This document shows, one piece after another, positions 11,588 through 62,325 of a stretch of 64,000 nucleotides of DNA. The stretch is from Candidatus Marinacidobacterales bacterium. GTDB lineage: Bacteria > Acidobacteriota > Vicinamibacteria > Marinacidobacterales > DATDRI01. The stretch's first letter is position 1, and the number at the start of each line of letters is the position of its first letter. The position numbers and the translations under genes are program-made. A model generated the notes under the pieces. That model was not told where the DNA came from. It was given only the letters and a program-made list of their open reading frames with translations, and did no database searches. The stretch lies in contig OZ245365.1 in assembly GCA_965226495.1 (NCBI GenBank), positions 4,608,001 through 4,672,000 on the forward strand. The letters are read 5' to 3'.

Positions 11588-11659
11588 GGGGTCTGATCTA
11601 AAAATGTGCACGTGCACATTTTTAGATCAGACCCCTGTGATATTTCTGGATCTGACCCC
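11588..11659. repeat. Perfect 48-bp palindrome plus an extra GATCTGACCCC unit (repeat family A)
   Basis: GGGGTCTGATCTAAAAATGTGCAC|GTGCACATTTTTAGATCAGACCCC at 11588-11635; related copies near 20350-20418 and 42343-42416. Confidence 0.9.
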
Positions 11660-11996
11660 AGCGGCTGTGCACTCTAAATGATGACGCGGCGGGGGAATCG
11701 GGAGTCCCAACCTCGCAGGGCCTCACCAAGAGGCTCCACCTCCCGGCTCTTCCCGCCATGGTTCCTATAGGCAATTCCCGGGCCATGCGGGGCGACCACT
11801 CGATCACTGTAGGAGATAACGACTTACGTGAGCTGTCGAGGCTCGGGGCGGGTCGTTTGCGTAGGGAAAGGTCTACGCCGAATCGGTAAAAGGCAACAGT
11901 CGACTTAATCCTTGATCTTAGAGGTCTTTTTCACGAACATGAGGGCCGGCGAGTTCAGCCCCAACCCTGAACGTGGGGACCGGGAGCAGAACCTGA

Positions 11997-12134
11997 TCGT
12001 CCGCGCCCGGCTCGTCATTCCCGCTTCCTCGTAAAGGTCGCCGAGGCCGGCCAGGCACTCCGCGTCAAAGAATCGGCTTCTTCCATCAGCTTCGATGGTC
12101 TCGTGGTAGTGCATGTCGCGAAAGTGTCGCTGGG
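11997..12134 (-). repeat. Partial, internally deleted duplicate of the 3' end of the neighbouring DUF4388 gene
   Basis: ~11997-12068 matches ~12342-12413; ~12074-12133 matches ~12534-12593 with one extra base. Confidence 0.85.
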
Positions 12135-12273
12135 GCCCCGGTCTCCACCGCCTCTAGCAAACCTCGCCTGCGAGAAATTGCCCTAAGCCGTGGCTACCGA
12201 GATCGCCTTTTGGCTTTTCGGGAACAGGATGACTTTACGCCAGCAGCCCCGTTAGCGTCAAACTGCGTCGGTT

Positions 12274-21714: not shown

Positions 21715-21828
21715 CCCGACCCTCCGGATCGCGGCGCTAAAATTGGCACCGTCGCTCCCATAATAGCGGATCTTTCGAAGGTACCACTGGCGGCTTATCC
21801 TCTAGGCTGGAGAAACCTGGGATGTCGA

Positions 21829-21861
21829 CCCTCACCCCGGCCCTCTCCCGGAGGGAGAGGG
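21829..21861. repeat. REP-like hairpin repeat (family C)
   Basis: CCCTCACCCCGGCCCTCTCCCGGAGGGAGAGGG. Confidence 0.85.
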
Positions 21862-21880
21862 AGTAGCGGACGAAGAGACC

Positions 21881-27319: not shown

Positions 27320-27409
27320 TATTCCCCCTCTCAGTCTGGGAGACTACGGCGTCAAACATGGCGTGCCGCGGTCAAGTTAGCCAGACGCCGGGTGAGGGAT
27401 AGCGATGAT

Positions 27410-27458
27410 GGCTTCCATCCGTTATTCCCTCTCCCTCTGGGAGAGGGTAGGGTGAGGG
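27410..27458. repeat. REP-like hairpin repeat (family C, inverted)
   Basis: CCCTCTCCCTCTGGGAGAGGGTAGGGTGAGGG with a TGGCTTCC flank. Confidence 0.8.
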
Positions 27459-27460
27459 CT

Positions 27461-30215: not shown

Positions 30216-30728
30216 ATGAACGTGAATAGCGAGGTCTGCGAACTCGTTGCGTCTGTCGAAAAGGCACGCGCTTCTGTACTGGAATCCGTAGCCGATCTGA
30301 CAGGAGCCCAAGGGGCTTTCAAACCGTCGGAGAACGAATGGTCTATCGCCGAAGTCATGGAACACCTCTACCTCGCGGAACTAGCGGGCATCACCAAGGT
30401 TTGGTCTGCACTCGAGAACCTACGAGCAGGCAGGCACTGGACCCATGAGCTCCCGAATCGGGGCAAGACGATCGACGAAGTGGTTGCCGAAACTTGGAAG
30501 CCGAAAGAAGTAGCACCACAGATAGCGACGCCGTTTATGGGTGGGCCACTCCGTCCCTGGTGCTCGGCGCTAGGCTCGCTCACGAAGGTGCTGGCAGATC
30601 TCGCAGTTGAGCTTGAGGCAAGAAAACTGGACGAGATCATCTTTCCCCACGTGCTTTCCGGTCCCTTGGACGCTCGACAACGGCTGGACTTTCTGCGATT
30701 TCATCAGAACACACAACAAGGAGGATGA
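30216..30728 (+). CDS. DinB family protein, C-terminus truncated
   Basis: WSIAEVMEHL, PH..SGPLD..QRL.FLRFH, then interrupted by a duplicated segment. Confidence 0.75.
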   Translation: MNVNSEVCELVASVEKARASVLESVADLTGAQGAFKPSENEWSIAEVMEHLYLAELAGITKVWSALENLRAGRHWTHELPNRGKTIDEVVAETWKPKEVAPQIATPFMGGPLRPWCSALGSLTKVLADLAVELEARKLDEIIFPHVLSGPLDARQRLDFLRFHQNTQQGG

Positions 30729-30963
30729 TATGCATGTATTGGGTGATGTCTTAAGATTCCTGTCAAAGAAAAACGATGTATGGAACGTCTGGTATTTGGG
30801 GAGATGAATCTCTCGGAGATCGTCCGGTCGGGAGCGAGGCAATGACTATCGAGAACGATCAGGCCAGATCGAGCGTATCCGGATGGAACCTAGTTTTCCC
30901 AATGAGTAGGCATGTGCTAAAACACTAGTTGCTTCACTCAGAACACACAACAAGGAGGATGAT

Positions 30964-31269
30964 ATGCATGTATTGCTGCACATCAAGATCCCGCATGAGC
31001 CGTTCAACACAATGGTTCGAAACGGGACTGCCGGAGACAAGATCAAGCAGATTCTCGAGGATCTGAGGCCAGAGTCCGTCTACTTCGGCGAGTTCAACGG
31101 CCAGCGCGGATCGATCATGGCCGTCGACCTGAAGGACTCATCGGAAATCCCGAAGTACGCGGAACCTTGGTTTCTCACATTCAATGCCGACGTCGAGTTT
31201 CATCCCGCAATGACCCCCGAGGAACTAGGGAAGGCAGGACTGGACGAGCTGGGCAAGAAGTGGGCCTAG
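30964..31269 (+). CDS. Small conserved protein (DUF3303-like)
   Basis: PESVYFGE..GQRG, AEPWFLTFNADVEFHPAMTPEEL; AAGGAGG RBS. Confidence 0.7.
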   Translation: MHVLLHIKIPHEPFNTMVRNGTAGDKIKQILEDLRPESVYFGEFNGQRGSIMAVDLKDSSEIPKYAEPWFLTFNADVEFHPAMTPEELGKAGLDELGKKWA

Positions 31270-33451: not shown

Positions 33452-33462
33452 TTTAGTAACCA

Positions 33463-33557
33463 CCCTCACCCCGGCCCTCTCCCTGAGGGAGAGGGAGTAA
33501 AGGAAGGAAGCCATCCGTGGCACCCTCACCCCAGCCCTCTCCCCAGAGGGGAGAGGG
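33463..33557. repeat. Doublet of REP-like hairpins (family C)
   Basis: Two CCCTCACC..CCCTCTCCC..GGGAGAGGG units with an AAGGAAGGAAGCCA spacer. Confidence 0.88.
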
Positions 33558-33563
33558 AGAATT

Positions 33564-34692
33564 CTAGCCGTCGACCTCGACTTCCATGGATTGGAGCTCA
33601 CGCAAAATCGTCTCCACCTTTTCGGCGGGCAGGCTATGTCGCTCCGCCACTTTCTCGATCTGCTCCATCTTGATGCGTCGAGGAGAAAAAGGCGCTGTCG
33701 GTTCGAAGTCTTTGTCCCGTATCTGAAGCGAGACCACATCCCACCGACTGTAATGTCCCATGCAATCGAAGACGTTCTTGGCCACGATACGATCGGCCAG
33801 ATCCAGCTCGGCGACCACCATCTCTTCGCGATGGAAAACCGGTTCCGCAGCATAGGCACCGAACGGGTTCACGATCGCGCTGCCACCCATAGCCCACTTC
33901 CAGCTCGCGGTCTTCTTATAGGGGAAGTCGTCAGGCACCGAGTCCTCCGGCAGGTAGAGGCTCGCACTGACCACGAAGGTCTGGGTCTCGAAGGCGTATT
34001 CCCGTATCGCGCAGTCCTGATCGGAAGAGTGGAGCGGTCCCTCGGAGCCCGTCATGTCACGCACCGAATTGCCCTCTCCGCCATAGCTCCACCAGCCCGG
34101 CCAAACCGCAGCGTGTATCTCCTCCCCCTTGATGGCCATCGCAGCCTTCAAGAGAGTCATGTGGTTCTCGAAACAAATGAGCCCACCTAGTCGACCAAAG
34201 CTGGTATCGAAAACTCGAAGGTCGGATGCGTCACCTCGCCCCCAAAAGAAGCGCTCTTGATGCGTGGGCATCAACTTGCGATGGCGGCCCAGAATCTCAC
34301 CATTGGAGCCGATGAAGAGGAGGGTGTTGTACAACGTCGCCGAGCCTTCACGATCGTCTTGTTCGTTGAGCCCGATGACCGCGACAACGCCGGCGCTCGC
34401 CGCCGCCCGACAGAGAATGTCGGTCTCTGGGCTAGGAATGCGGACCGACTGCTTCGTAGAACTCGACCACCGTGTCCTTCCAAAGAACAGCCGATTCCGG
34501 CGACGTATAGCCGAAGTTGTTTCGCCAGTACGGATAGGTCGGGATACCGGTCTCGGGCGTTACCAACAGCTTCACGCCCTGTCGTCCTGCCTCAACGATG
34601 GTCTCGGCGTACTTCTCGACCGACTCTCGCTTTTTCATGAAGACGGGCGAGATTTGTGCTGCTGCGACGCGTAGAGGTTTTTTGTTGGGCAT
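33564..34692 (-). pseudogene. Nitrilase (carbon-nitrogen hydrolase) with a 1-bp frameshift near 34457
   Basis: VAAAQ, TPE, HRKLMPT, LICFEN triad split over two frames; removing one A restores FYEQSVRIP. Confidence 0.85.
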
Positions 34693-42335: not shown

Positions 42336-42342
42336 GCCGAAA

Positions 42343-42416
42343 CGGGGGTCAGATCCAGTTTTGTGCACATTTGGGCCATACTGACTGGCGAATGCACAAT
42401 ATTGGATCTGACCCCT
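42343..42416. repeat. Inverted repeat element (family A)
   Basis: GGGGTCAGATCCA...TGGATCTGACCCC. Confidence 0.85.
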
Positions 42417-42456
42417 GTAACATTCCTTTACGGGGGTCTGAAGCCGGGAGTGTGCG

Positions 42457-45485: not shown

Positions 45486-45530
45486 CCTTCCTTTGCTCCC
45501 TCTCCCTCAGGGAGAGGGCCGGGGTGAGGG
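45486..45530. repeat. REP-like hairpin repeat (family C, inverted)
   Basis: CCTTCCTT..CCCTCTCCCTCAGGGAGAGGGCCGGGGTGAGGG. Confidence 0.85.
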
Positions 45531-45566
45531 TGATTCATCCCCGGCCCCCTGGCTCCCTGCTATCCT

Positions 45567-50577: not shown

Positions 50578-50591
50578 GAGGTTACAGTCCA

Positions 50592-50930
50592 CTACTTCGT
50601 TGGCGCGAGCTGTTTCAGCTCTTCGAACCACCCCTTCACGACGTTTAACTGGGACTGCTGCGACGACTCGGTCGACAAGGCGACCAGGAATTTCTGACTG
50701 TCCGGAGAGACGCCGATGTGGGGATGATTGAGCGAAGCGAGGAGTTGTGCCTTACGCCGAAATCGCGCCAGGCGCTCGGGCTCCTCGGCTACTTCTGAGG
50801 GCAAAGCCTTGATGGCAACATCGCGCCCCAGCTTGGTATCCCGCGCTCGGTAGACCTCTCCCATTCCACCGGCACCGATGGGGGCGAGGATCTCGTAAGG
50901 ACCCAACTTAGTGCCGGGCGTGAGGGACAT
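50592..50930 (-). pseudogene. Ser/Thr kinase remnant (N-lobe fused in-frame to the extreme C-terminus)
   Basis: IGAGGMGEVY..VAIK..LNHPHI joined to SPD..WFEELKQLAPTK; compare the intact paralog at 59237-62095. Confidence 0.9.
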
Positions 50931-51922
50931 TCGCGTGAAAATATCCCCGCACAGGTTGAAAAGTCAATGAGTAGACAGGCCCCGGCTCGCGCGCGAGGCT
51001 GCTTGAGCGGCGAAATCGTTCCATCACATCCTTCCCGTACTCGCACTCCGCCAGATACTGGTTGTGCGCGGGGCACATCAGTTGGATGTTCTCAGGGCTG
51101 TGGTCGCCGCCGAGGGCAAAAGGCTGGCGGTGGTGGAACTGCAGTCCATGGCGTTCGCTACAACGCCTACCCCGCCCGTCCACGAAGGTGCATTGATTTC
51201 CGTCCCGCTCGCTCACCGCGCGCCTCACCGGGGCCGGGATGTAACGCGAGGAGGGTGACGTGTCGGTTTCTTTGAGATCGCGTCTGGGCGCCCGCGTCTT
51301 ACCGTAGCGCCTCGACTCCAACTTCTCCAGCTTTTCGGTCACGGCTTCGTCGATGATGACAGCTAGATCGCTGTCCGGCATGAGCGCGCGTAGGCGTTCG
51401 ATCTTGTCTTTGAGCTCGGCGCTGGCTGTGAACTGGATTTTGTAGCGGGTGGGGGCGAGGGGCTTAACCACGCCGGCGTTGGCCGGGAAGCTTGCGGATC
51501 TTGGGCGCAACATCAGGCTGCGGCGCAACCTCCGCCACAAGCTCTTCGATCTTTGCCTTGGACTTGTGCGCCGCTCGCGGCAAAACGGTGTCCCGATTCG
51601 CTTCGGTGAGGTATGGCGAAAGCTTGGCGGCGCCGGTCAGATGAATACGGCCGTCCTCCAGCATCGTCAGAAGCTCCGGGTGCCTTCGCGATGCGCGCGC
51701 GACTCGAATTCGGAGATAGGCTTCGGCCTCGGACATATGTAATACCTCGGAGCAATAGGTGAACATCGACGCGCAAGCTTCGCGTGCTTAGAGACGCCGC
51801 TCGTCTACCTCAGCAATGTGCGCGACCAACTCCGACTCGACGCGTCGTGATTGCTGCACCAGCCCCGACAAGCGGTGGAGTAACTCATCGTCCGAAGTCG
51901 ATTTCAATAAGTTCTTAAACAT
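50908..51922 (-). pseudogene. DUF222-like/HNH endonuclease gene, disrupted
   Basis: LVAHIAEVDERRL*, in-frame TAA at 51788-51790, frameshift near 51475; RD..QC..C..HH..GG...N...C..HN. Confidence 0.85.
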
Positions 51923-52182
51923 GTGTCGTCCCCCTCGACACTAATATAACAACGCACTTTTTTTGGCCTTGAGACGACGTGAGTCGGGAGGAACGTGCTT
52001 CGACGAAAATTTCGTCTCGAAGCTTCTGGGCGTTGACTAGAGCGTCAACGTACGTTTTAGAGATGGCAGTACGAAGGCATTAGAAAAGTTTCAAAACTTG
52101 TTGCGGAATCTTGTCAAGAGAAGATTCATTTTTTTCTTAGGAACGTATGTTTCAACTCCTCTAGTGGCTTACTTCGCTGCTG

Positions 52183-52206
52183 AGAATCTTGCCCGGGCAA
52201 GATTCT
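52183..52206. repeat. Perfect 24-bp palindrome AGAATCTTGCCCGGGCAAGATTCT
   Basis: Same core at 58258-58279; variant at 62283. Confidence 0.9.
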
Positions 52207-52214
52207 TGACGCTA

Positions 52215-53543
52215 CTAACGTCCGCCCGATTCGCTGGGCGTCGGGGGCCTCACTCGGTGCGCCGCGCGGCGGGTAGCGCTCGATGGCGCCATTCGATCCG
52301 CCAACTCTCTCACCCTCTCGAGATACACGTCCATATACTCGGCCGCGATCGGTGGACCGGGAGGGTAAATTTGCTTGAGCGGATTCACCGGCTTCCCGTG
52401 ACGAACGAGGCGGAAATCCAAATGGGCACCGGTCGCCAAGCCGGTGGATCCGACGTAGCCGATCACTTCTTTCTGGTTTACGCGTTTGCCGGTGCGGAGT
52501 CCCTTGGCGAAGCGGGACAAGTGTAGGTACTTGGACTGGTAACCCATCGCATGGCGAAGAGTCACCATGCGGCCGGAACCTCCTTTGGTGGAGATCCCGG
52601 TCACCGTCCCGGCCGCGACCGAATGCACGGGCGTCCCTTGCGGAGCCGCATAGTCGACGCCGAGGTGAGGCATCCGGCGTCCATGCACCGGATGAAGCCG
52701 ACTATAGGAGAACCGCGAGCTGATTCGCTGAAACTCGAGCGGTGCTCTGAGGAAGGCCTTACGCATCGACTTGCCGTTGGGATCGTAGTAACCCTTCTTC
52801 ATGCCGTTCGGGTCCACGAAAAGAAAGGCGAAGAGTTCCGTCTCCCCGGAAACGTAGCTGGCCGCGAGAAGGTCTCCGTAACCGGCAAACTGGTCGTCGC
52901 GGTATAGCTTCTCTACAAGGAGTGAAAACCGATCCCCGGGCCTACTCTGCGTGTAGAAATCGAAGTCCCAAGCGAAGACTTCAGCGAAGGCGACCACCAG
53001 GGGAGCCGACTCTCCTAAAGACTCCAGGCTCGCGAAGAGACTCCCTTGGACCGAACCCCGGTGCGCTACCTCTCTATGCTCGATGACGATGGAGAGCTGG
53101 TCCCCCACCCAACCACCGTTCTCCCGGCGAGCCTCATAAGTCTCTAGGGCTCCGCGATGGATCCAAATCGCGTCCACATTCCCACCGCTGGTGTAACGGA
53201 TCTCTACTTCGTCGCCGGGTCGTAGGTGGCGCAGATTGAGATGAGGCGTCAAGGCGGTGGCCATCTCGTGCACCGCGAGGGGAGTAAACCCGTTGCGCTG
53301 GAGTAAACTGGCCAGCGTGTCTCCTCGACGAACCCGATCCGGTACGACCAACCACGGCTCTTGATCGGTGAAGCTGACTTCTGCGGGCCGGGGGGCCTCG
53401 GGAGGCTCGAATAGGGGAAGGTCGAGAGGTGCCAAGCGTTGCCATGCCGCCAACCCGACGACGCTCATCCCATAGAGCCCCACGGAGGCCAGCGAAAAAC
53501 GACGCACTAGGCGAAGCCCTTTTCTCGAACGTGACTTCTTCAC
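52215..53543 (-). CDS. M23 family peptidoglycan DD-metalloendopeptidase
   Basis: HLGVDYAA, YLHLS, STGLATGAHLDF. Confidence 0.92.
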   Translation of the reverse strand: MKKSRSRKGLRLVRRFSLASVGLYGMSVVGLAAWQRLAPLDLPLFEPPEAPRPAEVSFTDQEPWLVVPDRVRRGDTLASLLQRNGFTPLAVHEMATALTPHLNLRHLRPGDEVEIRYTSGGNVDAIWIHRGALETYEARRENGGWVGDQLSIVIEHREVAHRGSVQGSLFASLESLGESAPLVVAFAEVFAWDFDFYTQSRPGDRFSLLVEKLYRDDQFAGYGDLLAASYVSGETELFAFLFVDPNGMKKGYYDPNGKSMRKAFLRAPLEFQRISSRFSYSRLHPVHGRRMPHLGVDYAAPQGTPVHSVAAGTVTGISTKGGSGRMVTLRHAMGYQSKYLHLSRFAKGLRTGKRVNQKEVIGYVGSTGLATGAHLDFRLVRHGKPVNPLKQIYPPGPPIAAEYMDVYLERVRELADRMAPSSATRRAAHRVRPPTPSESGGR

Positions 53544-54490
53544 GCTTGCGCCCCGGGAGCGGGGACCCCGTAGAAGTCCAGGCTTCTCTCGAGACCTTGG
53601 GAGAGAGAAAAGCGCGGCTTGTAATCGAGCTCCTCGGCAAGACGAGAGATATCGGCTTGCGAGTGGGCTACGTCGCCGGCGCGGGGAGACTCGTAAACGG
53701 GTTTCACCTTGCTTCCAACCAGTGCCGCCATCGTCTTCCAAAGGTCGTTCAAAGAGATGCGATCTCCACAACCGACGTTGTATACCCGCCCCGCGGCTCG
53801 CGGGGAGTGGCAAGCGGTCAGATTCACGTCCGCCACGTTGTCCACGTAGGTGAAGTCGCGGGTCTGCTCACCGTCGCCATAGACAGTGGGTGGCTTGCCC
53901 AATACGATGGAGTCGATGAAGCGACTGATGACCCCCGAGTACGCGGAGCCGGGATCTTGGCGCGGGCCGAACACGTTGAAGTACCGCAACGCCACCGTTT
54001 CCAAACCGTACAGTCGGTGGTACACCATGCAGTACTGCTCGCCCGTCAGCTTCGAGACCGCATAGGGCGAGAGGGGCTCGGGCCGAACACTTTCTCTTTT
54101 GGGAAGCTCCTTGCTAGCTCCGTACACCGAAGAAGAAGACGCGTAGACGACGCGGCGGACCTTGGCTTGGCTGGCGGCGTGGAGCAGCACCAGCGTACCG
54201 GTCGCATTGGCAGCATGTGACTCGAGGGGTCGCTCCACCGAGCGAGGGACCGAGGGGATGGCCCCTTGATGGAAGACATAGTCCACACCGGTGACGGCCT
54301 TCTGCACGTCCTCCGGGTCGCAGAGATCGCCCCGCTTGAGCTCGATCTCGCCTTCGACGCCTTCTAGGTTCGCCTCTCTACCGGTGGAGAAGTTGTCCAA
54401 GACACGAACCTTCTCCCCGTCGTCGAGGAGTCGGCGCACTAGGCTCGAGCCGATGAACCCTGCACCGCCGGTCACCAGATAGAGCCCCAC
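53540..54490 (-). CDS. NAD-dependent NDP-sugar epimerase/dehydratase
   Basis: TGGAGFIGS, ASSSSVYG, YAVSK, RYFNVFGP. Confidence 0.93.
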   Translation of the reverse strand: MGLYLVTGGAGFIGSSLVRRLLDDGEKVRVLDNFSTGREANLEGVEGEIELKRGDLCDPEDVQKAVTGVDYVFHQGAIPSVPRSVERPLESHAANATGTLVLLHAASQAKVRRVVYASSSSVYGASKELPKRESVRPEPLSPYAVSKLTGEQYCMVYHRLYGLETVALRYFNVFGPRQDPGSAYSGVISRFIDSIVLGKPPTVYGDGEQTRDFTYVDNVADVNLTACHSPRAAGRVYNVGCGDRISLNDLWKTMAALVGSKVKPVYESPRAGDVAHSQADISRLAEELDYKPRFSLSQGLERSLDFYGVPAPGAQA

Positions 54491-54670
54491 TCGCCTCCTC
54501 GAAAATTCATCGCTAGCTCAAATTGACTAACTATCAGTGTAGGGGAGCCGCATGTGCTTCGTCAACCATAACTTACGCGGTCGGGCCGGGGGGCGCCTTT
54601 TTCGAATACGCCCACCCTATGTTAAGATAGTGTTGGGAAATACCTTCGCCTACGGATCCAGGAGCTATTT

Positions 54671-56311
54671 GTGCAGGGAGACCTTAGCCAGGATACCCTC
54701 GCTGGCGTAATCCGCGGCCTGTACCTCGACCGCAAGAGTGGCATCTTGCACCTCGAACGGGAGGGGATCAAGAAGCGGATTTACTTCAAGAAGGGGTCCA
54801 TGATCTTCGCCAATTCGGACGTCGATGACGACCGGATCGGGGAGTTCCTGATCCGCAACAACGCCATCGATCGAGCCGCCTTCGAGATGGCGGCTAAAGT
54901 CGCCAAGGATACTAAGAAGCGGTTCGGCAAGACCGTCGTCGAGATGGGTCACATGTCCGCCGACGAGATGGAGACCCACGTCACCGGCCAAATCCAAGCT
55001 ATTATTTTCTCCCTGTTTCTGTGGGAGGCGGGTGACTGGAACCTAGAGCCGCACGAAGATCCGGTCGATGCAGATATCGTGCTGAATCTCTCCACCGCGG
55101 ACATCATCCTGGAAGGCATCCGGCGAATGACTGACCTGGAAGGGATCCGCCGTGGCCTAGGAGATGAGCAGGGAATGTTGCGACATTCCGAGAATCCCCT
55201 TCTGCTTTACCAAAAGATCAGCTTGACGCCCTCGGAAGGATTCGTGCTGTCACGTGTCGACGGCGTATCCACGGTTGCCGACATTGCGGCCATTTCACCA
55301 CTAGGCGAGGAAGAAACAATTCGTTGTATCTATGGGTTAGTTTCGGCAGGAGTTCTCGATGTCGCGAACACTGGCGCGCAGGCTGCCGCGGCTCCGGCAA
55401 CGGAGGACAAGGTCGATATCCCGAGGCCCGAGGCCGAAACCTTAGAACGCGATGAGGATAAGGCGGCTGCTCCACCGGCACCATCGGGACCTACGCCCGA
55501 AGAGCAGGAGATCCGAGACGACATCATGGCCCGGCACGCTTCGCTAGAGACCGCCAACCTCTACGATCTCCTAGGACTCAACCTGAACGCGGGCGGCCCC
55601 GAAATAAAAAAGGCCTACTACAAGATGGCGAAGAAATACCATCCGGATCGCCATCACTCACCGCATCTTCACGACGTGCACGGCCAGCTGGAGGAGCTCT
55701 TCGTGAAGATCACCAAGGCGTATCAGAAGCTCTCCGACCCCCTGGCTCGCCGGCGCTATGACTCATCTCTGCGCACCGAGGCTCCCCCAGGCGAAGGCGC
55801 AGGCGGTGGGTCGTCGGCAACCCCGTTGCACGACGCTGGGACGCCATCCATGCCGGAGGGGCCGACTCCACAAGAAAAAATGGCGGCCATGCAATTCCAG
55901 GAGGGCCGGCGACACTTCATAGAGCTGCATTACTTCGATGCCATCCAATGTTTACGTGAGGCGGTCCGGCTCGCTCCGCACAAAGGTCCGTACCACAAGC
56001 TACTCGGGCAAGCCTTGGTCAAGAATCCCCACTGGCGGAAGGAGGCCGAGGAGCACTTCCACATAGCGCTCAAAACGAGTCAGTTCGATCCGGAGTGTTT
56101 CATCGGATTGGGTGAGATCTACGAAGGCGAAGGCATGACCAGCCGGGCCCTGAAGATGTACCAGCAGGCGCTCAACTACGATCCCAGCAACGAGTTCGCG
56201 CAGGAAAAACTCGATGCTCACAAGCCCAAAGGGGCCATGGAAGGGCTCAAAGGCATGCTCCGTCGAAAGAAGGACAAGGGGGAAAAGGAGGAAAAGGTTT
56301 CGGAGGAATAG
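54671..56311 (+). CDS. DUF4388 + DnaJ-domain + TPR protein (paralog of 12274-13794)
   Basis: Same architecture; YHPD motif; shared DSSLRTEA/DNSLRTEA. Confidence 0.87.
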   Translation: MQGDLSQDTLAGVIRGLYLDRKSGILHLEREGIKKRIYFKKGSMIFANSDVDDDRIGEFLIRNNAIDRAAFEMAAKVAKDTKKRFGKTVVEMGHMSADEMETHVTGQIQAIIFSLFLWEAGDWNLEPHEDPVDADIVLNLSTADIILEGIRRMTDLEGIRRGLGDEQGMLRHSENPLLLYQKISLTPSEGFVLSRVDGVSTVADIAAISPLGEEETIRCIYGLVSAGVLDVANTGAQAAAAPATEDKVDIPRPEAETLERDEDKAAAPPAPSGPTPEEQEIRDDIMARHASLETANLYDLLGLNLNAGGPEIKKAYYKMAKKYHPDRHHSPHLHDVHGQLEELFVKITKAYQKLSDPLARRRYDSSLRTEAPPGEGAGGGSSATPLHDAGTPSMPEGPTPQEKMAAMQFQEGRRHFIELHYFDAIQCLREAVRLAPHKGPYHKLLGQALVKNPHWRKEAEEHFHIALKTSQFDPECFIGLGEIYEGEGMTSRALKMYQQALNYDPSNEFAQEKLDAHKPKGAMEGLKGMLRRKKDKGEKEEKVSEE

Positions 56312-56329
56312 CGCTCACATTACTCCGCT

Positions 56330-57712
56330 TTACTCTAGTTTTCCCGCCTCCCTTTTGATCCTCTCGTTGAGTTCTAGAACGTCTCGCCGGATCTTGTCTA
56401 CGTCCACGGTTCCTACTACGCGACTTTCCATAATGACCCGCCCGTGAACGATGGTGGTCGTCACGTTGGCGGCTGTCGCCGCGTAAACCAACGCCGAGTA
56501 GACGTCGTACATCGGGATCATATTGACCGCGTCCTTATCGACGATGATGACGTCGGCCAGCTTCCCAACCTCGAGTGAACCAATCCGGTCCCCCATGTTG
56601 AGCGCTTTCGCACCTCCGATAGTTGCCATTTCGACCACATCAACGGGCGGCATAACGCTCCGGTCTTCGTTGACCAGCTTGTGTATCTTGGCCACGTAGC
56701 CCATCTGGATCATGATATCGAGCGTGTTGCCGCTCATGGCACCGTCACTGCCCAAACCGACGTCGACTCCGCGCTCGAGCATGGTCAGAACCGGCGCCAC
56801 GCCCTTCCCGGCCTTCACGTTGGAAACCATATTGTGAGCGACGCCTACTCCACGTTGCTTCATCAGGTCGATGTCCGACTCGGTAACGAAGATACAGTGG
56901 GCCGCCACCAGTCGAGAGCTCAGTAAACCGACTGAATCTAGATACTCGACCGGCGTCTTGCCGAAATCGCGGCGGATTTGCTCGATCTCGGCTTTCGTCT
57001 CCGAGAGGTGGATCAGGACGGGCACGTCGAGCTTCTCGGCCCACTCCGCCACCAAGGCCAACTGCTCCTCCTCGACGGAGTAAGGCGCGTGCGGAGCCAG
57101 GGCGGGAGTGATTAGCTCGTCACCACGAAACTCTTCGATAAATTTCAACGCGTACTCGAGGCCGCCGTAAGGCTCTTTCGCGTCCGGGGCGGGATACTTG
57201 ATCACCGTCTCCCCGGCGATGGCGCGCATCCCCACCTCGCTGGCGGCGCGCGCAACCTGATCTTCGAAGTAGTACATGTCGGCAAACGTCGTCACCCCGC
57301 CCTGCACCATCTCCACCGCGGCGAGGAGCGTTCCGCGATAGACGTTCTCCGGGTCGACGACCGTTCTCTCCAATGGGAAGATGAAACGCTGCAGGCGATC
57401 GGGAACCTCGTCGGCGAGACCGCGGAAAATGGTCATCGGGGCGTGAGTGTGGGTGTTCACCATACCCGGCATCACGATGTCGCCACCGGCGTCGATGACC
57501 TTGGCTGCCGAGTATTGGGCCGCGAGCTCGGGTCCACCCAACGCGACGATCTCGGAACCACGGATGACGAGCGTGCCTTCCGGGATCACCGCCTTCTCCT
57601 CGTTCATCGTCACGAGGTGGGCGTTCTTTATTAGGATGTCGGCGCGCTGTGGCTCCTGCCACAAACCGACACCCGCTGCCGCAATCATGAATGCGACGGT
57701 CCAGCTAAACAT
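56330..57712 (-). CDS. Amidohydrolase (MtaD/AtzA-like)
   Basis: NTHTH, PHAPY, IHLSET, AAHC, GSDG. Confidence 0.9.
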   Translation of the reverse strand: MFSWTVAFMIAAAGVGLWQEPQRADILIKNAHLVTMNEEKAVIPEGTLVIRGSEIVALGGPELAAQYSAAKVIDAGGDIVMPGMVNTHTHAPMTIFRGLADEVPDRLQRFIFPLERTVVDPENVYRGTLLAAVEMVQGGVTTFADMYYFEDQVARAASEVGMRAIAGETVIKYPAPDAKEPYGGLEYALKFIEEFRGDELITPALAPHAPYSVEEEQLALVAEWAEKLDVPVLIHLSETKAEIEQIRRDFGKTPVEYLDSVGLLSSRLVAAHCIFVTESDIDLMKQRGVGVAHNMVSNVKAGKGVAPVLTMLERGVDVGLGSDGAMSGNTLDIMIQMGYVAKIHKLVNEDRSVMPPVDVVEMATIGGAKALNMGDRIGSLEVGKLADVIIVDKDAVNMIPMYDVYSALVYAATAANVTTTIVHGRVIMESRVVGTVDVDKIRRDVLELNERIKREAGKLE

Positions 57713-57714
57713 GC

Positions 57715-57950
57715 TCACATCTTCCCCTCCCTCTCCTTCAAGTAGTCGTCGATGGCCGGCCGCCACGACTCGATGTAATCCCGATAGTGGGCCTCGTTGA
57801 ATTCGGCCAAGTAGGTGTTGCCCTCTTCTGACAGCGCGGTGAAAGTATAGGACACTTGAGCCCGCGTCGCTCCCCCGTCTGCTTCTTCACAACGTACTTC
57901 TACGACTGCCACGCGGGAGCCGGGAGTTACTCTCGCATACTTGGTAACAA
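57715..57950 (-). pseudogene. 5'-truncated gene fragment (SRPBCC-like C-terminus)
   Basis: YARVTPGSRVAVVEVRC...VSYTFTALSEEGN...W..AI..YL; upstream is the HNH gene. Confidence 0.55.
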
Positions 57951-57976
57951 ACTGGATTCAGGTTGTCCAGCTCGGT

Positions 57977-59020
57977 TCAGTTCCGGGAGGACTCCTTCCG
58001 CGCGGCATCGATCTTCCCTTGAATGAACCCGGCGCCAAATGTACGCTCCGCGGTCAACAGATTGTGAGGCCCGCAGTGAAGGCGCAGATTCCTCTCGCCG
58101 TGACTGCCATCTAGAGCAAAGGCCCGCAGGTGCTCGATTTCGAGCCCTGTTCGTTGGCGACACCGAGTCCCATCCCGACCCCGAAATTCACACTGGTAGC
58201 CGGCGCGATCTTGGACGCGCTCGCGGACCTCCGAGGGGATGTAGCGGGACTTGCCAGAAATCTTGCCCGGGCAAGATTTTCTGTTACCTTTCGACACCTT
58301 CTGTAGTCGCCGTTCACGCTTTCTCTTCACGTCCTTCTTGTCGAGAGCGATGTCCATCGCCTGTTCCATGATCTCGGCCATCCGTTGCTGGGAGTTTTCG
58401 ACACCGAGCACCTCCGCCAGGCGCTCGAACTTCTCCTTGAACTCGCGGTCGGCGGAGAAGCGGAAATTGAACACCTCCGGTTGCGCCGGCTCGAGGATGG
58501 TCGGTGACACCCGGGGAGTCGGGCGTGCCGTCAGGACTGGCGGCGGCTCGGCGGGCGCCTTGGTTGGTATCTTTCGAATCGAGGACGCGAAAACGGGCTT
58601 TGGCCGGAGCGCGACAACGTACTCTTCGACCTCGCGCCTGGTCATTCCGGCGCAATCCCCAAAAAGCTTCTCGACGTTGCTCTCAGTGAGAACGGGCGCA
58701 AGGAGACCCGCCACGGTGAGACTCACTTGGTTCTCGGCCAGTGCCACGAGTATCTGAGGGAAACGTCGCGCTACGTTGGCCACCTGAATCCGGCGAGCGA
58801 CCGAACCCTCGCTTAGGTTCAAGCGCCTGGTGCAGTAATCGAACAGATTCTTGTACCCGCGCTCGAGATGGCCCTTTCTTCTAGACATCTCTGCGATGTG
58901 GGCGATGACGAGCGCCACGTTTCGTTTCTCAGCGCGGACCAGCTTCTCGGTTGAGCGGTCGAGCTCTTCGGTGGAGAGCCCTTCGAGTGTAGCGAAGTAC
59001 GTCTTAACTTTTTCGATCAT
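57977..59020 (-). CDS. DUF222-like/HNH endonuclease
   Basis: VIAHIAEM..R...GY..LFDYC...L.LSEG N-domain; SRYIP..VR..V..R..QC..C..H...N...C..HN. Confidence 0.88.
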   Translation of the reverse strand: MIEKVKTYFATLEGLSTEELDRSTEKLVRAEKRNVALVIAHIAEMSRRKGHLERGYKNLFDYCTRRLNLSEGSVARRIQVANVARRFPQILVALAENQVSLTVAGLLAPVLTESNVEKLFGDCAGMTRREVEEYVVALRPKPVFASSIRKIPTKAPAEPPPVLTARPTPRVSPTILEPAQPEVFNFRFSADREFKEKFERLAEVLGVENSQQRMAEIMEQAMDIALDKKDVKRKRERRLQKVSKGNRKSCPGKISGKSRYIPSEVRERVQDRAGYQCEFRGRDGTRCRQRTGLEIEHLRAFALDGSHGERNLRLHCGPHNLLTAERTFGAGFIQGKIDAARKESSRN

Positions 59021-59236
59021 GAGCGTTGCCCCCTCTCCTAAATATAGCAACGTACTTTTTCGTACACTCAGAGGGCGTGAGCGCGAAACAAACGAGCTCG
59101 GTTGAAGAAAAGGCTCAATTTAGTAGAGAAGGATGCGAGAAGGCTTGCGTGCAATTCCTAAAGGTATCCGTGTTAATGGCTCGTCACGTCGTGATTTTGC
59201 CCCGCGAAACTTGTCAAGTGATTCTCGATCTTTTTT

Positions 59237-62095
59237 TCACTTTGTCGGAACCAGACGTTCGAGCTCCTCGAACCAGTTGAGAATGATGACGAGCTCGGTG
59301 CGTTCCGACTGGCGTCCACCAACCGGCTTCGCCATGACAAACCGGCCGTCGGGTCCCACATCGTAGGTCGGAGCAGCGGCGCCGTCTGGTGAATACGGCA
59401 GCTCGAACAACGTTTCGGGCGGCTCGAACCGGAAATCCGGATCGGTGGTAACCCGGACTGCCATCATCGTGTGATCCTCTATGTAATAGAGCTCCCGATC
59501 TCCCGGCCCCCAAACCGGCTCCACTCCACCGTTGGTCGAAACCCGCATCGGTGCACCTGAGCCGGGATACGGCCGCACTAGAACCTCGAAACGCCCCGTC
59601 AAGTCCGATATAGACGCATGCCAACGACCGTCTGACGAAAGCGCGCTCATCCCCTCAAGATCCTCTGTTTGAACCACGACACGAGGTTCCCGATCGCCCT
59701 TGAGCGAAATCGCCATAATATCGTTTTGCTCTTCGAAGAGGAGCTCCTCGGTCCGGTGGGACCATGCTCGAAGAAACTTTGGGTGTGGACTCTTGAGGAG
59801 TAGCTCCGGCTCGGAGCTGCTCCCGTCAGAGGGGATAGAGAAAAGGTCCAAGCCGCCGGCTCGCGTTGAAGCAAACGCGATGCTGCTGCCACCCTGCACC
59901 CAAACGGGAAGGAGGTCACGTCCACCGGTTGTCAGACGCGTCGGAGGACGATTATCCAGATAGTAGACCCAGAGGTCTCCAAACCCCGGGTTGAATCCAG
60001 TCATCAAAGCCAACCGGCGCCCATCGGGTGATAGTCGGATGTTCCTCGGATTCTCGAGCGGTCCTTCAACCAACGGCTGGTGCTCTCTTCCGTGACGATC
60101 GACCCACAGCAAGGTCGCGAGGCTGGTGCTTCTAGGGAGATACGCCAGCGAGCCGTCGCGCGACAGACTGACGCTCCCGAGACCCCACCGGGGATTGGCC
60201 CTTATCCCCTCCAGCACCGGAGCGGAAGGGCCTGTCGTTTCTAGGTCTTCAAGATCGAACGGCGCCGCCATGAGAACTCCCTGCTGCATATAGAGCAAGT
60301 GACCGGACGGCGCGTAGCGGGGGAAGTAACCACCTTCGAGCACGGTGTGGTATTCGCCAGACTTCAGTGAAAGGGCCGCGATACGGCTTGGTACGAGCGA
60401 CGACGTGCCCTGTATCGAGAAAAGGACGGCCTTGCCGTGGGGGAGCACATCTGGCCACCAGTGGCCCCCCTCCTCATTCGCAGCGTCGGGTGTTGTAAGA
60501 ACCTCGGGCGTACCGCCGCTTTCGGGCACACGGAAAAGACCAATCTGATTCTCTTCGTTAAGGGCAGCAAAGATAATGGTATTGTCGGTGCTCCAGGATG
60601 CCCCCCAAAGGCGTCGTTTCTGGCACAAGGTCGTCACCGGGCCACCGCGGACAGAGACCGTCTTCAGTGCGTTTTTCTGTGGGCCTAGATTTTCGAAAAA
60701 CCCAATCCACTCGCCGTCGGGCGAGAAGAACGGGTCAACAGCGTTCTCCGTTCCTGGCAGCGGCGTGACATCGAGTTCGTCGAGCGAGCGAACGTAGAGC
60801 AACCGTTCATCGGCACTCCCCCCAGCGTACGCGAGCCGCGATCCATCCGGAGAGAACGCGAGAGTTCCGGGGTTGCCCAGCATACCGGCAAACGGTGCTT
60901 CGGCAGGCAAGGTGATCGACAATCGACGAGTTGGCTCGGACGGACCCGGCCCCACTAGCGCCCAAACGGCGAGTCCTGCTAGCAATGTGCCGATGATTCC
61001 AATCGCAATCCATTGCCCGGGCCTCGAGTGTGCTTTTGCAGCCGGCAGCTCAGTCGCGCCTTGCCCGGCGATCCATTTCAACTCCTGCATGACATCGGAC
61101 GCAGCTTGCCAGCGTTGGTCCGGTTCCTTGGCCAAGCACCGTCGGATCACGTGATCCAGCAGGGGCGGTGCAGTAGGTATGGAAGGAGGCTCGTCTTTGA
61201 GAATCGCTCCAATCAGACTCGCCTGACTCTCTCCTTCGAAGGCTCGTCGCCCAGTCACCATTTCGTAGAGCACCGCACCGAAGGCGAAGATGTCGGTCCG
61301 CGCGTCGGCTTTCTTGCCCTCGACCTGTTCGGGAGCCATGTACTGCAACGTGCCGACAATCGCCCCTTCTCGTGTCATTTTCGTCGCAGTGGCCGCGTCA
61401 GGATCGAGCTTCGAAGGTTCAGGCATCAGCTTCGCCAAACCAAAATCCAGAAGCTTCGCACCCGACTTCGTCAGCATGATGTTGCCGGGCTTGAGGTCAC
61501 GATGCACGACGCCGTGACGGTGCGCCTTGTCGAGCGCGTCCGCGATCTCGATTCCATGTTGCATAGCCTGATCGAGTGGTAGCGCTCCCTTCTCTAATCG
61601 CGCGGCCAACGTCTCCCCTTCGATGTACTCCATCACTAAGAAATCGACACCGTTTTCTTGGCCAACGTCGAAGAGCGTGCAAATGTGGGGGTGGTTCAGT
61701 TGAGAGATCGTGCGGGCCTCGCGCTCGAAACGTTCTCGGGCCTGACGGTTTCCGGCAACATGAGCCGGGAGAACTTTGATGGCAACGGTGCGATCGAGTC
61801 GCGTATCGGTGGCTTGGTAGACCTCACCCATCCCGCCCGCACCAATCAGGCGAACGAGCTTGTAATGACCAAGCTCCGTTCCGGGCGCTAGCTCCATGCT
61901 ATTTACCGCCGGTCCGCGGCCGAGAAAACCGTTCGCTTCTGCTTCGTCATGATTGGCCAGTAGCTCTTCGACCCGCTTGCGCAGCGCATCTTGTCCTGAG
62001 CACGCTTCGTCCAAAAATGCCGGTCGCTCGTTGGGGGCGAGCCTGAGCGCGGCTTCGAAGAGCTCTGCGACGCGCTCCCAAGAGTCCGGCTTCAA
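59237..62095 (-). CDS. Ser/Thr protein kinase with TolB-like beta-propeller
   Basis: GAGGMG, HRDLKPGN, DFG, APE; repeated FSPDG. Confidence 0.95.
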   Translation of the reverse strand: MKPDSWERVAELFEAALRLAPNERPAFLDEACSGQDALRKRVEELLANHDEAEANGFLGRGPAVNSMELAPGTELGHYKLVRLIGAGGMGEVYQATDTRLDRTVAIKVLPAHVAGNRQARERFEREARTISQLNHPHICTLFDVGQENGVDFLVMEYIEGETLAARLEKGALPLDQAMQHGIEIADALDKAHRHGVVHRDLKPGNIMLTKSGAKLLDFGLAKLMPEPSKLDPDAATATKMTREGAIVGTLQYMAPEQVEGKKADARTDIFAFGAVLYEMVTGRRAFEGESQASLIGAILKDEPPSIPTAPPLLDHVIRRCLAKEPDQRWQAASDVMQELKWIAGQGATELPAAKAHSRPGQWIAIGIIGTLLAGLAVWALVGPGPSEPTRRLSITLPAEAPFAGMLGNPGTLAFSPDGSRLAYAGGSADERLLYVRSLDELDVTPLPGTENAVDPFFSPDGEWIGFFENLGPQKNALKTVSVRGGPVTTLCQKRRLWGASWSTDNTIIFAALNEENQIGLFRVPESGGTPEVLTTPDAANEEGGHWWPDVLPHGKAVLFSIQGTSSLVPSRIAALSLKSGEYHTVLEGGYFPRYAPSGHLLYMQQGVLMAAPFDLEDLETTGPSAPVLEGIRANPRWGLGSVSLSRDGSLAYLPRSTSLATLLWVDRHGREHQPLVEGPLENPRNIRLSPDGRRLALMTGFNPGFGDLWVYYLDNRPPTRLTTGGRDLLPVWVQGGSSIAFASTRAGGLDLFSIPSDGSSSEPELLLKSPHPKFLRAWSHRTEELLFEEQNDIMAISLKGDREPRVVVQTEDLEGMSALSSDGRWHASISDLTGRFEVLVRPYPGSGAPMRVSTNGGVEPVWGPGDRELYYIEDHTMMAVRVTTDPDFRFEPPETLFELPYSPDGAAAPTYDVGPDGRFVMAKPVGGRQSERTELVIILNWFEELERLVPTK

Positions 62096-62110
62096 GTGGC
62101 TCGCCCTTGG

Positions 62111-62220
62111 CCCTCACCCTACCCTCTCCCAAAGGGAGAGGGTATAAAGGAAGGAAGCCAACGTGCCCCCTCACCCTACCCTCTCCCCAGAGGGGAGAGG
62201 GTTTCAAGGAAGGAAGCCAA
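62111..62220. repeat. Doublet of REP-like hairpins (family C)
   Basis: Two units, each followed by AAGGAAGGAAGCCA. Confidence 0.88.
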
Positions 62221-62325
62221 CCAACTTGTGGTGAAAATAGCTGTATACCAGGCGAAAAGTCAATGGAGGGCAGTAAGGAGGAAAACCTTGTCCGGACGAG
62301 ATTTTTTGTTACCTTTCGATACGCT

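Follow-up and report, generated by a model that had tools for sequence, protein, structure and literature searches.

A leader with two boxes at a nearly constant spacing upstream of a multicopy family of HNH genes in Marinacidobacterales: a candidate bipartite promoter

The stretch of DNA considered here (the window: 64,000 nucleotides, positions 4,608,001 to 4,672,000 of contig OZ245365.1 of Candidatus Marinacidobacterales bacterium) contains two related genes of HNH type, each preceded by a non-coding leader. On the coding strand, both leaders show the same order of elements, namely, a distal A-tract, the far box CTTGACAAG, about 160 nt of spacer, an A5-7 tract followed after 7-9 nt by an extended -10 element TGnTATATT (the near box), a GAGGGGG ribosome-binding site, and the ATG. 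All motif positions given for the two copies in an initial annotation of this DNA were found again in the sequence (Table 1), as was the distance from AATATA to CTTGTCAAG, which is 167 nt in copy 1 and 169 nt in copy 2; counted from the start of TTGACA to the start of TATATT, the distances are 169 and 171 nt, respectively. In copy 2, two coding-strand A-tracts (59220-59236) lie 5' of the far box, the distal one adjoining the TGA stop codon (59237-59239) of the upstream kinase gene; no -10 hexamer was found 16-18 nt downstream of this far box, and no -35 partner was found for the near box. Of the two HNH genes that were initially recognized, copy 2 is intact; copy 1 is disrupted by an in-frame TAA at 51788-51790 and by a frameshift near 51480 and is thus a pseudogene.

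Table 1. Features of the two cassettes, of the adjoining genes, and of other repeats in the window
Feature	Positions	Strand	Details
Copy 1 leader (family member B33)	51923..52135	-	TTGACA to TATATT, 169 nt
Copy 1 AATATA	51943-51948		plus-strand reading
Copy 1 extended -10, TGTTATATT	51943-51951	-	
Copy 1 Shine-Dalgarno (SD) sequence	51930-51936	-	
Copy 1 segment complementary to GAGGGGG	51983-51993		in the spacer
Copy 1 mid-leader palindrome CGTTGAC-TAGAGC-GTCAACG	52031..52050	n/a	kept in most B-subfamily leaders
Copy 1 CTTGTCAAG (plus strand), far box CTTGACAAG (coding strand)	52110-52118	-	
Copy 1 T-run (plus strand), coding-strand A-tract	52129-52135		
Copy 1 HNH gene, pseudogene	50969..51922	-	ATG 51922; family similarity stops at GTCTACTC (50976..50969)
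Copy 2 leader (family member A34)	59021..59236	-	from distal A-tract to the base before ATG
Copy 2 AATATA	59041-59046		plus-strand reading
Copy 2 near box, extended -10 TGCTATATT	59041..59049	-	A5 tract (59056-59060) 7 nt upstream
Copy 2 SD region, GGAGAGGGGG	59029..59038	-	
Copy 2 mid-leader C/T-rich segment, sense GCCTTCTCGC	59135-59144	-	complementary to the SD (GAGGGGG)
Copy 2 CTTGTCAAG (plus strand), far box CTTGACAAG (coding strand)	59210-59218	-	consensus -35 TTGACA at 59217..59212
Copy 2 T-run (plus strand)	59231-59237		
Copy 2 reading frame, intact, 347 aa	57977..59020	-	ATG 59020, stop 57977-57979
Palindrome AAAATCTTGCCCGGGCAAGATTTC in the copy 2 reading frame	58257..58280	n/a	12-bp arms; codes ..SCPGKIS..
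Intergenic palindrome AAGAATCTTGCCCGGGCAAGATTCTC	52182-52207	n/a	just after the M23 peptidase gene
Block absent from the same-genus genome G002	50581..52183	n/a	kinase 3'-end remnant, copy 1 cassette and internally deleted kinase gene
Ser/Thr protein kinase / PD40 gene ending ..WFEELERLVPTK before its stop	59237..62095	-	copy 2 cassette begins at its stop codon
Internally deleted Ser/Thr kinase, 112-aa reading frame	50592-50930	-	about 70 N-terminal residues joined to ..WFEELKQLAPTK and stop; Pfam Pkinase E 5.2e-8, residues 12-72
Promoter-like motif TTGACT-N18-TATTTT of the Ser/Thr kinase family	50935..50967	-	directly 3' of copy 1
40-nt A-type HNH remnant (palindrome region)	62283..62322	-	85% identical to 58258-58297
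REP-like repeat copies	21828-21870, 27407-27459, 33458-33564, 45486-45535, 62109-62221		
TGCACA..GGATCTGACCCC repeat copies	11588-11659, 20350-20412, 42340-42439		
Local direct duplications	11996-12069 / 12341-12414, 12092-12139 / 12551-12598, 30704-30741 / 30938-30975		

The host genome, a single 6.34-Mb contig of Vicinamibacteria type with 59% G+C (G000 in the coordinates below), contains about 35 such compact cassettes, each consisting of a leader of about 230 nt and one open reading frame (ORF) for a protein in which a likely ParB-type DNA-binding domain is fused to an HNH nuclease. In this genome, 39 loci match copy 2 by tblastn: 17 copy-2-like members (subfamily A, 55-89% amino-acid identity), 17 copy-1-like members (subfamily B) that are about 30-35% identical to A and include a subgroup C with the leaderless mRNA layout described below, and 5 fragments. 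The ORFs are intact (at least 342 amino acids) in 28 of 33 members, some pairs of paralogs are close to each other (88% amino-acid identity), and amino-acid identity (0.75) far exceeds the identity at four-fold degenerate sites (0.51-0.54), which indicates purifying selection on the protein. Similarity among the copies breaks off abruptly just upstream of the A-tract. A search of the genome with an nhmmer profile of the leader yields 36 matches, all 36 upstream of HNH genes; 35 of these are at the tblastn loci, and the 36th precedes a very divergent paralog, D1 (G000 5193975-5195267), a true DUF222 + HNH protein (PF02720, 79.6 bits, E 3.4e-22). In the 6.34 Mb of the genome, there are 27 occurrences of the composite motif TTGACA-N159-170-TGnTATA, every one of them at an HNH locus. 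Given these two counts, the sharing of the leader is not a matter of chance. In the 34 A and B members examined, the distance from TTGACA to TATA is 169-172 nt in all 33 complete leaders, the 34th member (A15) being truncated in both leader and ORF. The initial observation is thereby confirmed, and it applies far more widely than to the two genes of the window.

The same geometry is found in other organisms. The protein family is present in 24 of 41 related genomes (a tally that takes in one unpublished genome, G007), with up to 45 matches per genome; by family, the counts are 7/7 (f1), 16/17 (f2) and 0/16 (f3, with small genomes). The named relatives are mainly metagenome-assembled genomes of Vicinamibacteria / 'Marinacidobacterales', with a few from Gemmatimonadota, Armatimonadota and Eisenbacteria. 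When a strict pattern is applied to 80 related loci of other species, 46 show the leader architecture, one of these from Gemmatimonadota, and those from Armatimonadota and Eisenbacteria do not; several of the misses are truncated copies or have variant hexamers. Relatives of D1, which were detected in 8 of 151 sampled Acidobacteriota genomes (including the unpublished G089) and span other Acidobacteriota families, show a -10-like hexamer 171-174 nt downstream at 18 of 22 CTTGACA sites, with 3 further cases recognized by eye; these hexamers mostly have an ATG 5-6 nt later. The pooled set from several species comprises 92 leaders, 79 of them unique. In these 79, the TTGACA-to-TATA distance is 167 nt in 1, 169 in 2, 170 in 13, 171 in 34, 172 in 23, 173 in 5 and 174 in 1, that is, 170-172 nt in 70 of the 79. 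The distance from the -10 hexamer to the ATG in the same leaders varies from 6 to 42 nt, so that indels are evidently tolerated elsewhere in the leader.

Each end of this interval resembles one half of a promoter. The far box is composed of an A/T-rich, UP-like tract and the host-consensus -35 (CTTGACA); the string AAAAA-N2-4-CTTGACA occurs 27 times in the genome, 24 times at HNH loci, and the remaining sites are canonical promoters with TATCCT 17 nt downstream. In the 79 leaders, the far TTGACA was found to have no -10 partner, as the best score at a 16-18-nt spacer is on average -2.9 compared to -3.2 in control windows (with an approximate -10 scoring matrix). The near box, in turn, has the features of an extended -10 element, with a TATAAT-like hexamer that scores 7.8 bits on average, TGn directly 5' of it in 52 of the 79 leaders, and a plausible placement of the start site; the best -35 match upstream of it does not exceed 3 of 6 positions in 77 of 79. 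The two half-promoters discerned at first in the window, an A-tract plus TTGACA with no good -10 and an extended -10 with no -35, recur as a rule among the 79 leaders. Two near-consensus hexamers that start 167-174 nt apart fall outside the definition of a sigma-70 promoter, with its 16-18-bp spacer. In subgroup C, the B10-like leaders, the relatives of D1 and many others, the ATG comes 5-6 nt after the near hexamer, which reads TATAAA in subgroup C and in many relatives; this is the layout of a leaderless mRNA. Other subfamilies have a GAGGGGG ribosome-binding site 3' of the near box. Since in the former case the ATG comes only 5-6 nt after the hexamer, we argue that the near box is the gene's own predicted extended -10 promoter. 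Opposite-strand intrinsic termination at the far box was considered and rejected: a good hairpin with a T-run (GAATCTT..AAGATTC + T7) is present in copy 1 only and, as read from the sequences, is no general feature of subfamily A.

Between the two boxes, subfamily A has kept the length and let the sequence drift: identity in the spacer (0.56) equals that at four-fold degenerate sites (0.54), with a mere 0.9 gap columns per pair over 142 nt. The leader is not a coding sequence: stop codons interrupt each of the six frames, none of which stays open in more than 6 of the 33 leaders. Consensus folds were computed by RNAalifold for each subfamily, sense and antisense, and compared with column shuffles; the resulting z values are 0.1 (sense) and 0.2 (antisense) for subfamily A (n=20), -0.4 and 0.5 for subfamily C (n=12), -0.8 and -2.8 for the A7-like leaders (n=11), -1.9 and -1.0 for the B10-like leaders (n=7), and -6.4 and -4.0 for subfamily B (n=14), so that in 4 of the 5 leader subfamilies no consensus fold beyond the shuffles is found on either strand. 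The signal in subfamily B comes from two local palindromes that are conserved and not compensated; one of them is the hairpin noticed initially in copy 1, which is present as described but is confined to subfamily B and is no general feature of the leader, its palindrome being conserved mostly by sequence, with no clear compensatory change. Mutual information over the 79 leaders revealed no stacked covarying column pairs, and Rfam gave no match in the leaders at E up to 1. These results lend no support to the suggestion that the leader might be an HNH-associated non-coding RNA. Strong selection has acted on the spacing across deep divergence; neither coding nor a conserved RNA fold accounts for it.

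Empty sites show what the leader is a part of. At the site of member A27, the flanking genes are contiguous in genomes G003 (5 nt apart) and G004 (36 nt apart), with 1311 nt missing in both; the filled site starts at most 13 nt before the distal A-tract and ends at most 20 nt past the ORF stop. At the site of member B21, about 1320 nt are missing in G003; in this case, the last codons of the upstream gene have given way to the A-tract, which provides the gene with a stop (..LSKKKN, then stop), and the 3' edge lies just 5' of the -35 of the next gene's promoter. Over both mapped insertions, the unit measures 1311-1320 nt and comprises the leader and the HNH ORF only, its 3' end lying within about 25 nt after the ORF. 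These two comparisons identify the far box as the 5' terminus of a 1.3-kb insertion and lend support to the early idea that the shared element is the end of a mobile unit. This unit does not qualify as an insertion sequence: a transposase is lacking, and the two mapped insertions showed no terminal inverted repeats. A possible 6-nt flanking repeat, ATAGAA, at one insertion is not interpretable.

The protein encoded by the cassette was modeled with AlphaFold2 on 28 paralogs (mean pLDDT 75). The model consists of a confident N-terminal helical domain, a disordered, Pro-rich linker of low confidence, a helical middle part, and the HNH domain. Residues 13-142 superpose on the DNA-binding domains of ParB/Spo0J, Noc and KorB (Z 8.0-10.2 by VIA-align for a dozen ParB/Spo0J/Noc chains, rmsd 2.4-3.6 A, 99-119 residues; 6y93_B, for one, aligns at 2.9 A over 114 of 116 residues), although helical domains can reach such Z values by chance. 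The Foldseek E value of the match is about 0.2, with sequence identity of 13-16% and no Pfam sequence match, and a Foldseek search against the PDB gave nothing at E <=0.001. On this model, the N-terminal domain likely has a ParB-type helix-turn-helix (HTH) DNA-binding fold. Residues 255-333 superpose on HNH nucleases (Z 5-7.4), the HNH residues C277, C287, H297, C316, H319 and N320 are invariant in the 28 sequences, and PF01844 (HNH) is matched by 16 of the 28 members, as well as by the C-terminal part of copy 1 (E 7.8e-5). Of the label 'DUF222-like HNH' given initially, the second half is upheld; the first is not, inasmuch as both window proteins stay below the Pfam cut-off for DUF222 (PF02720; copy 2: E 0.03, 14.1 bits versus 24.4), whereas D1, a paralog with the same leader, passes it. 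Weak DUF222 matches were obtained for 9 of the 28 intact paralogs (best E 2.3e-4). Because they fall below the gathering score, the window genes are better described as distant relatives than as members of the DUF222-HNH genes. The NCBIfam model of IscB (NF040563) weakly matches 21 of the 28 members (best E 4.1e-6), with 18.9 bits versus a cut-off of 175 and over the HNH motif only (residues 263-325); no RuvC or PLMP was found in them.

Nearly every member carries a palindrome within its ORF, with arms of 9-14 bp and a CCGG or CCAG centre; it lies at nt ~740-820 of the ORF in subfamily A (..CPGKIS..) and at nt ~441-477 in subfamily B (..QLGPDRV / QLRPDAV / QLCPDTV..), and the units of subgroup C have palindromes upstream (-255 to -271) and 3' (+1067 to +1087). 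The arms differ among copies yet stay complementary, which points to selection on a DNA or RNA hairpin, with the linker peptide following. As the N-terminal domain appears similar to ParB and Noc in fold, these ORF palindromes and those of the AACTCGGTCCGGACCGAGTT type may be considered candidate binding sites for it. The intergenic palindrome that follows the M23 peptidase gene has a 20-nt core identical to the palindrome of the copy 2 ORF and has a diverged counterpart in the empty site of G002; directly beside it is the insertion of the 1.6-kb block that carries copy 1. The genome as a whole contains 67 CCGG-centred palindromes whose arms measure at least 10 bp, 20 of which are at HNH loci; by our reading, about 15 of the other 47 are of HNH type.

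In view of these data, we suggest, with a probability of roughly 40%, that the leaders are the 5' control regions of a selfish cassette of about 1.3 kb and that each of them is a length-constrained bipartite promoter, acting as DNA, with its halves cooperating across a loop or wrap of fixed size. The spacing equals the canonical 23 bp plus about 148 bp, i.e. about 14 helical turns. The phrase initially used, a promoter split by an insert of fixed length, is accordingly a good quantitative description, whereas the joint action of the far and near halves is something that we infer from the pattern of the sequences. Mechanistically, RNA polymerase (through its alpha C-terminal domains and region 4 of sigma), or else a factor that occupies the far box, would cooperate with the near -10, the intervening ~148 bp being looped or wrapped by protein at a fixed length, and the cassette would thereby possess a promoter that is portable, independent of context and probably regulated. 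Where a subfamily has a ribosome-binding site, anti-SD segments of the spacer, such as those found in both window copies, could also mask this site in read-through transcripts from the upstream gene. In these subfamilies, the sense strand of the spacer contains 0.30-0.32 C and 0.19-0.25 G; in the leaderless subfamilies, G is at or above C. Masking would fit the C-rich spacer but would explain neither the far box nor the fixed length, as the leaderless subfamilies share both. Excision of the 148-bp insert between direct repeats and formation of a cruciform were also considered and dropped, since no suitable repeats or self-complementarity were seen by eye. A bolder version of the bipartite promoter, in which a UP/-35 half and an extended -10 half with ~148 bp extra would form one wrap or loop around RNA polymerase or a bound protein, and thus represent a new promoter class that serves as the portable switch of a selfish ParB-HTH/HNH cassette across Acidobacteriota, seems to us rather unlikely.

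Several observations weigh against the bipartite promoter. A full-length relative, L078 (G002 C1), has neither the far box nor most of the spacer. In subfamily B, the spacer is more conserved than expected (0.72 versus 0.51 at four-fold sites) and contains conserved local hairpins; on these two grounds, some sequence-specific role, RNA or protein-binding, exists there. We found no 10-11-bp AA/TT periodicity that would mark intrinsic curvature, the peaks at other periods being due to shared ancestry, and no site for a bending protein was found in the leader. Although the AT-profiles of the spacers of six subfamilies are correlated in every one of the 15 pairs (r 0.28-0.68, each value exceeding nearly all circular shifts), which implies that positions along the spacer are not interchangeable, this correlation may reflect residual homology and not a structural constraint. 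Finally, among the 79 leaders, there is no spacing one helical turn off (~160 or ~182 nt), although pure looping predicts such lengths; this speaks for a wrap of defined size, or something else, over a free loop. As to L078 itself, it is 81% identical to copy 2 and, with an internal deletion of ~140 nt that has spared the A-tracts and the near box, represents a natural deletion mutant.

Among the alternatives, the one that fares best, even if we consider it improbable, treats the leader as a nucleoprotein site at the left end of the cassette: the boxes would be bound, at a fixed spacing, by the ParB-type domain of the cassette protein or by host proteins in the course of copying or insertion, and the likeness to a promoter would be secondary or relate to expression only. 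The ends of Mu and Tn7, with their spaced binding sites, provide an analogy. Indeed, no more than about 35 nt separate the far box from the 5' insertion boundary, the family is multicopy, genera differ in which of its sites are occupied, and a conserved length without a conserved sequence is what a spacer between protein sites should show. However, the far box equals the strong -35/UP sequences of the host base for base and does not vary among subfamilies whose proteins share only about 30% identity, whereas an element-specific site would be expected to co-vary with its protein. The predicted ParB/Spo0J/Noc/KorB fold (Z 8-10 over 99-119 residues) would suit a protein that binds the leader, but the palindromes specific to the family are located elsewhere, within the ORFs; besides, no matching motif was seen at the 3' end of the cassette, nor were inverted terminal repeats.

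Somewhat less probable still appears a riboregulator in a long 5' untranslated region, where a far promoter that is weak or depends on an alternative sigma factor, or else read-through, would yield a leader RNA of about 170 nt that masks the ribosome-binding site. The anti-SD C/T-rich segments and the excess of C over G are indeed restricted to the SD-bearing subfamilies, an inverted repeat CGTTGC...GCAACG flanks the -10 and the ribosome-binding site in subfamily A, and subfamily B has its conserved hairpins with the z of -6.4 on the sense strand. Yet no subfamily has a -10 after the far box, the subfamilies have no fold in common (in A, C, A7-like and B10-like leaders there is none at all), and the leaderless subfamilies maintain the 171-nt spacing with no ribosome-binding site to mask. 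An RNA switch would also leave unexplained why the length is held to +/- 1 nt while the sequence is free to change.

A guide-type RNA, similar to omega RNA or HEARO, that would program the HNH nuclease is a far more remote prospect. It is brought to mind by the conserved non-coding element of about 200 nt that lies, co-oriented, directly 5' of an HNH gene at the end of a mobile unit, and by the weak IscB match in 21 of 28 members; this match, however, is to the HNH motif alone, there is no RuvC or PLMP, and the N-terminal domain is modeled as a ParB-type HTH. Neither HEARO nor any other Rfam family matches the leaders, which have no conserved RNA structure, and the -10 that drives the gene sits downstream of the element, which would place the element outside the gene's main transcript. 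Least credible of all is the view that motifs and spacing have no function and are merely inherited from recent duplication of the cassette: the copies are paralogous and some are close (88% amino-acid identity), but the spacing is kept between subfamilies with about 30% protein identity, with spacer sequence at neutral divergence, and in other genera, families and classes, while neighbouring leader segments show indels of up to 30 nt. A circle-junction promoter in the style of IS911/IS110 was discarded, as the -35 at the left end reads inward.

The genome also has an expanded family of Ser/Thr kinase / PD40 genes, 34 of which end in W[FL][ED][ED]L.. before the stop, many of them arranged head-to-tail with 2-4-nt spacers. 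The HNH cassettes are found preferentially at the borders of these genes, other copies being in unrelated contexts. In 4 of the 34 kinase genes ending in WFEEL.. before the stop, a cassette begins right at the stop codon, 18-20 nt before its TTGACA. The kinase promoter motif, TTGACTTTTC-N-TATTTTC, has 21 copies in the genome, and 6 cassettes end right at its -35. The four kinase stops and the six cassettes at a kinase -35 hint at an insertion preference for gene ends and promoter edges. These positions bear on the possibility that the cassette is a free-standing homing endonuclease gene, a kind that inserts at one conserved target sequence and cleaves the empty allele. The motif itself was rejected as a part of the cassette, most of its 21 genomic copies not being beside HNH genes. 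The orientation of upstream genes, judged by ORFs (21 on the same strand, 12 on the opposite one, 1 with none), is too crude a count in a GC-rich genome and was not used. In G002, copy 2 occupies the same site as in the window. The A-type HNH remnant at 62283..62322 is fused with the kinase promoter motif, a copy of which occupies 62231-62265; similar short remnants of the palindrome region occur elsewhere, e.g. at G000 4593022 and 4514629. Such short remnants around the palindrome suggest that deletions end at palindromes.

The window contains other repeats as well. One of them, dispersed and REP-like, measures about 45-50 nt, contains the hairpin CCCTCTCCC-N3-4-GGGAGAGGG flanked by GGTGAGGGT / GGAAGGAAGCC, and occurs in both orientations; its copies often follow the kinase promoter motif; the only Rfam match of the region, mir-3718, comes from this repeat and, with 26.7 bits versus 78, was set aside as noise. 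A second repeat family, TGCACA..GGATCTGACCCC, consists in part of perfect 24-nt inverted repeats. There are also local direct duplications of 38-74 nt, perfect or near-perfect and 234-459 nt apart, which may be tandemly duplicated genes or gene starts.

To our knowledge, few of the unexplained multicopy genes of bacteria are as common as those of DUF222-HNH type, and nobody understands their expression and spread. A leader whose geometry is conserved while its sequence drifts offers a clean and testable case of selection on DNA length. The insertion boundaries define a minimal unit of 1.3 kb, and the likely DNA-binding fold, along with covarying palindromes that may be its sites, provides a handle on the family. 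If the halves cooperate over 148 extra bp, this would be a new way to build a bacterial promoter and would offer a natural model of how DNA is wrapped in initiation; otherwise, the far box would mark the end by which a mobile gene of a new, transposase-free kind is recognized.

Comparison with known systems puts these cassettes into perspective. With the DUF222-HNH genes (PF02720 + PF01844), to which we take the REP13E12 repeat family of Mycobacterium tuberculosis to belong, as the terms occur together in the literature, they share a multicopy unit with a single ORF, an N-terminal helical domain, a C-terminal HNH with zinc-type Cys/His residues, and the absence of a transposase and of a known mechanism of mobility; the window genes differ in falling below the Pfam cut-off for DUF222. 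By sequence, the cassette genes are a distant branch of this REP13E12-like kind. For the actinobacterial DUF222-HNH genes, a conserved leader is not known to us, and among the titles and abstract openings surveyed on DUF222-HNH, REP13E12, multicopy HNH or IshB, none deals with one. IscB/IshB with omega RNA (HEARO, RF02033; IS200/IS605) has a similar layout, with an HNH gene after a same-strand, non-coding left-end element of about 200 nt; in contrast, the cassette has no RuvC/PLMP, Rfam match or conserved fold, shows no sign of IS200/605 ends or TnpA, and its upstream element looks like promoter DNA.

ParB/Spo0J, Noc and KorB resemble the cassette protein in its predicted HTH fold, and parS and the Noc-binding site are palindromic, like the sites associated with the family, some of which are intragenic; the cassette protein, however, lacks the N-terminal CTPase domain and is fused to a nuclease, and its binding to palindromes is putative. 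In IS10 and IS50, fold-back inhibition protects the transposase genes from outside transcription. The cassettes are similar in having an inverted repeat around their own promoter and ribosome-binding site, at the edge of the element, such that only read-through could be masked; this likeness is limited to the last ~60 nt of the leader, the far box and the 148-bp spacer lying outside it, and is absent in the leaderless subfamilies. No promoter class with this geometry is known to us, which is not to claim that none has been described in print. The sigma-70 promoters have similar parts (a UP-like tract + CTTGACA, and TGnTATAnT), and the tolerance of +/- 1-2 bp in the spacing of the leader boxes resembles that of the normal spacer of 17 +/- 1; the difference is that the hexamers of the leader start 171 bp apart instead of the usual 23.

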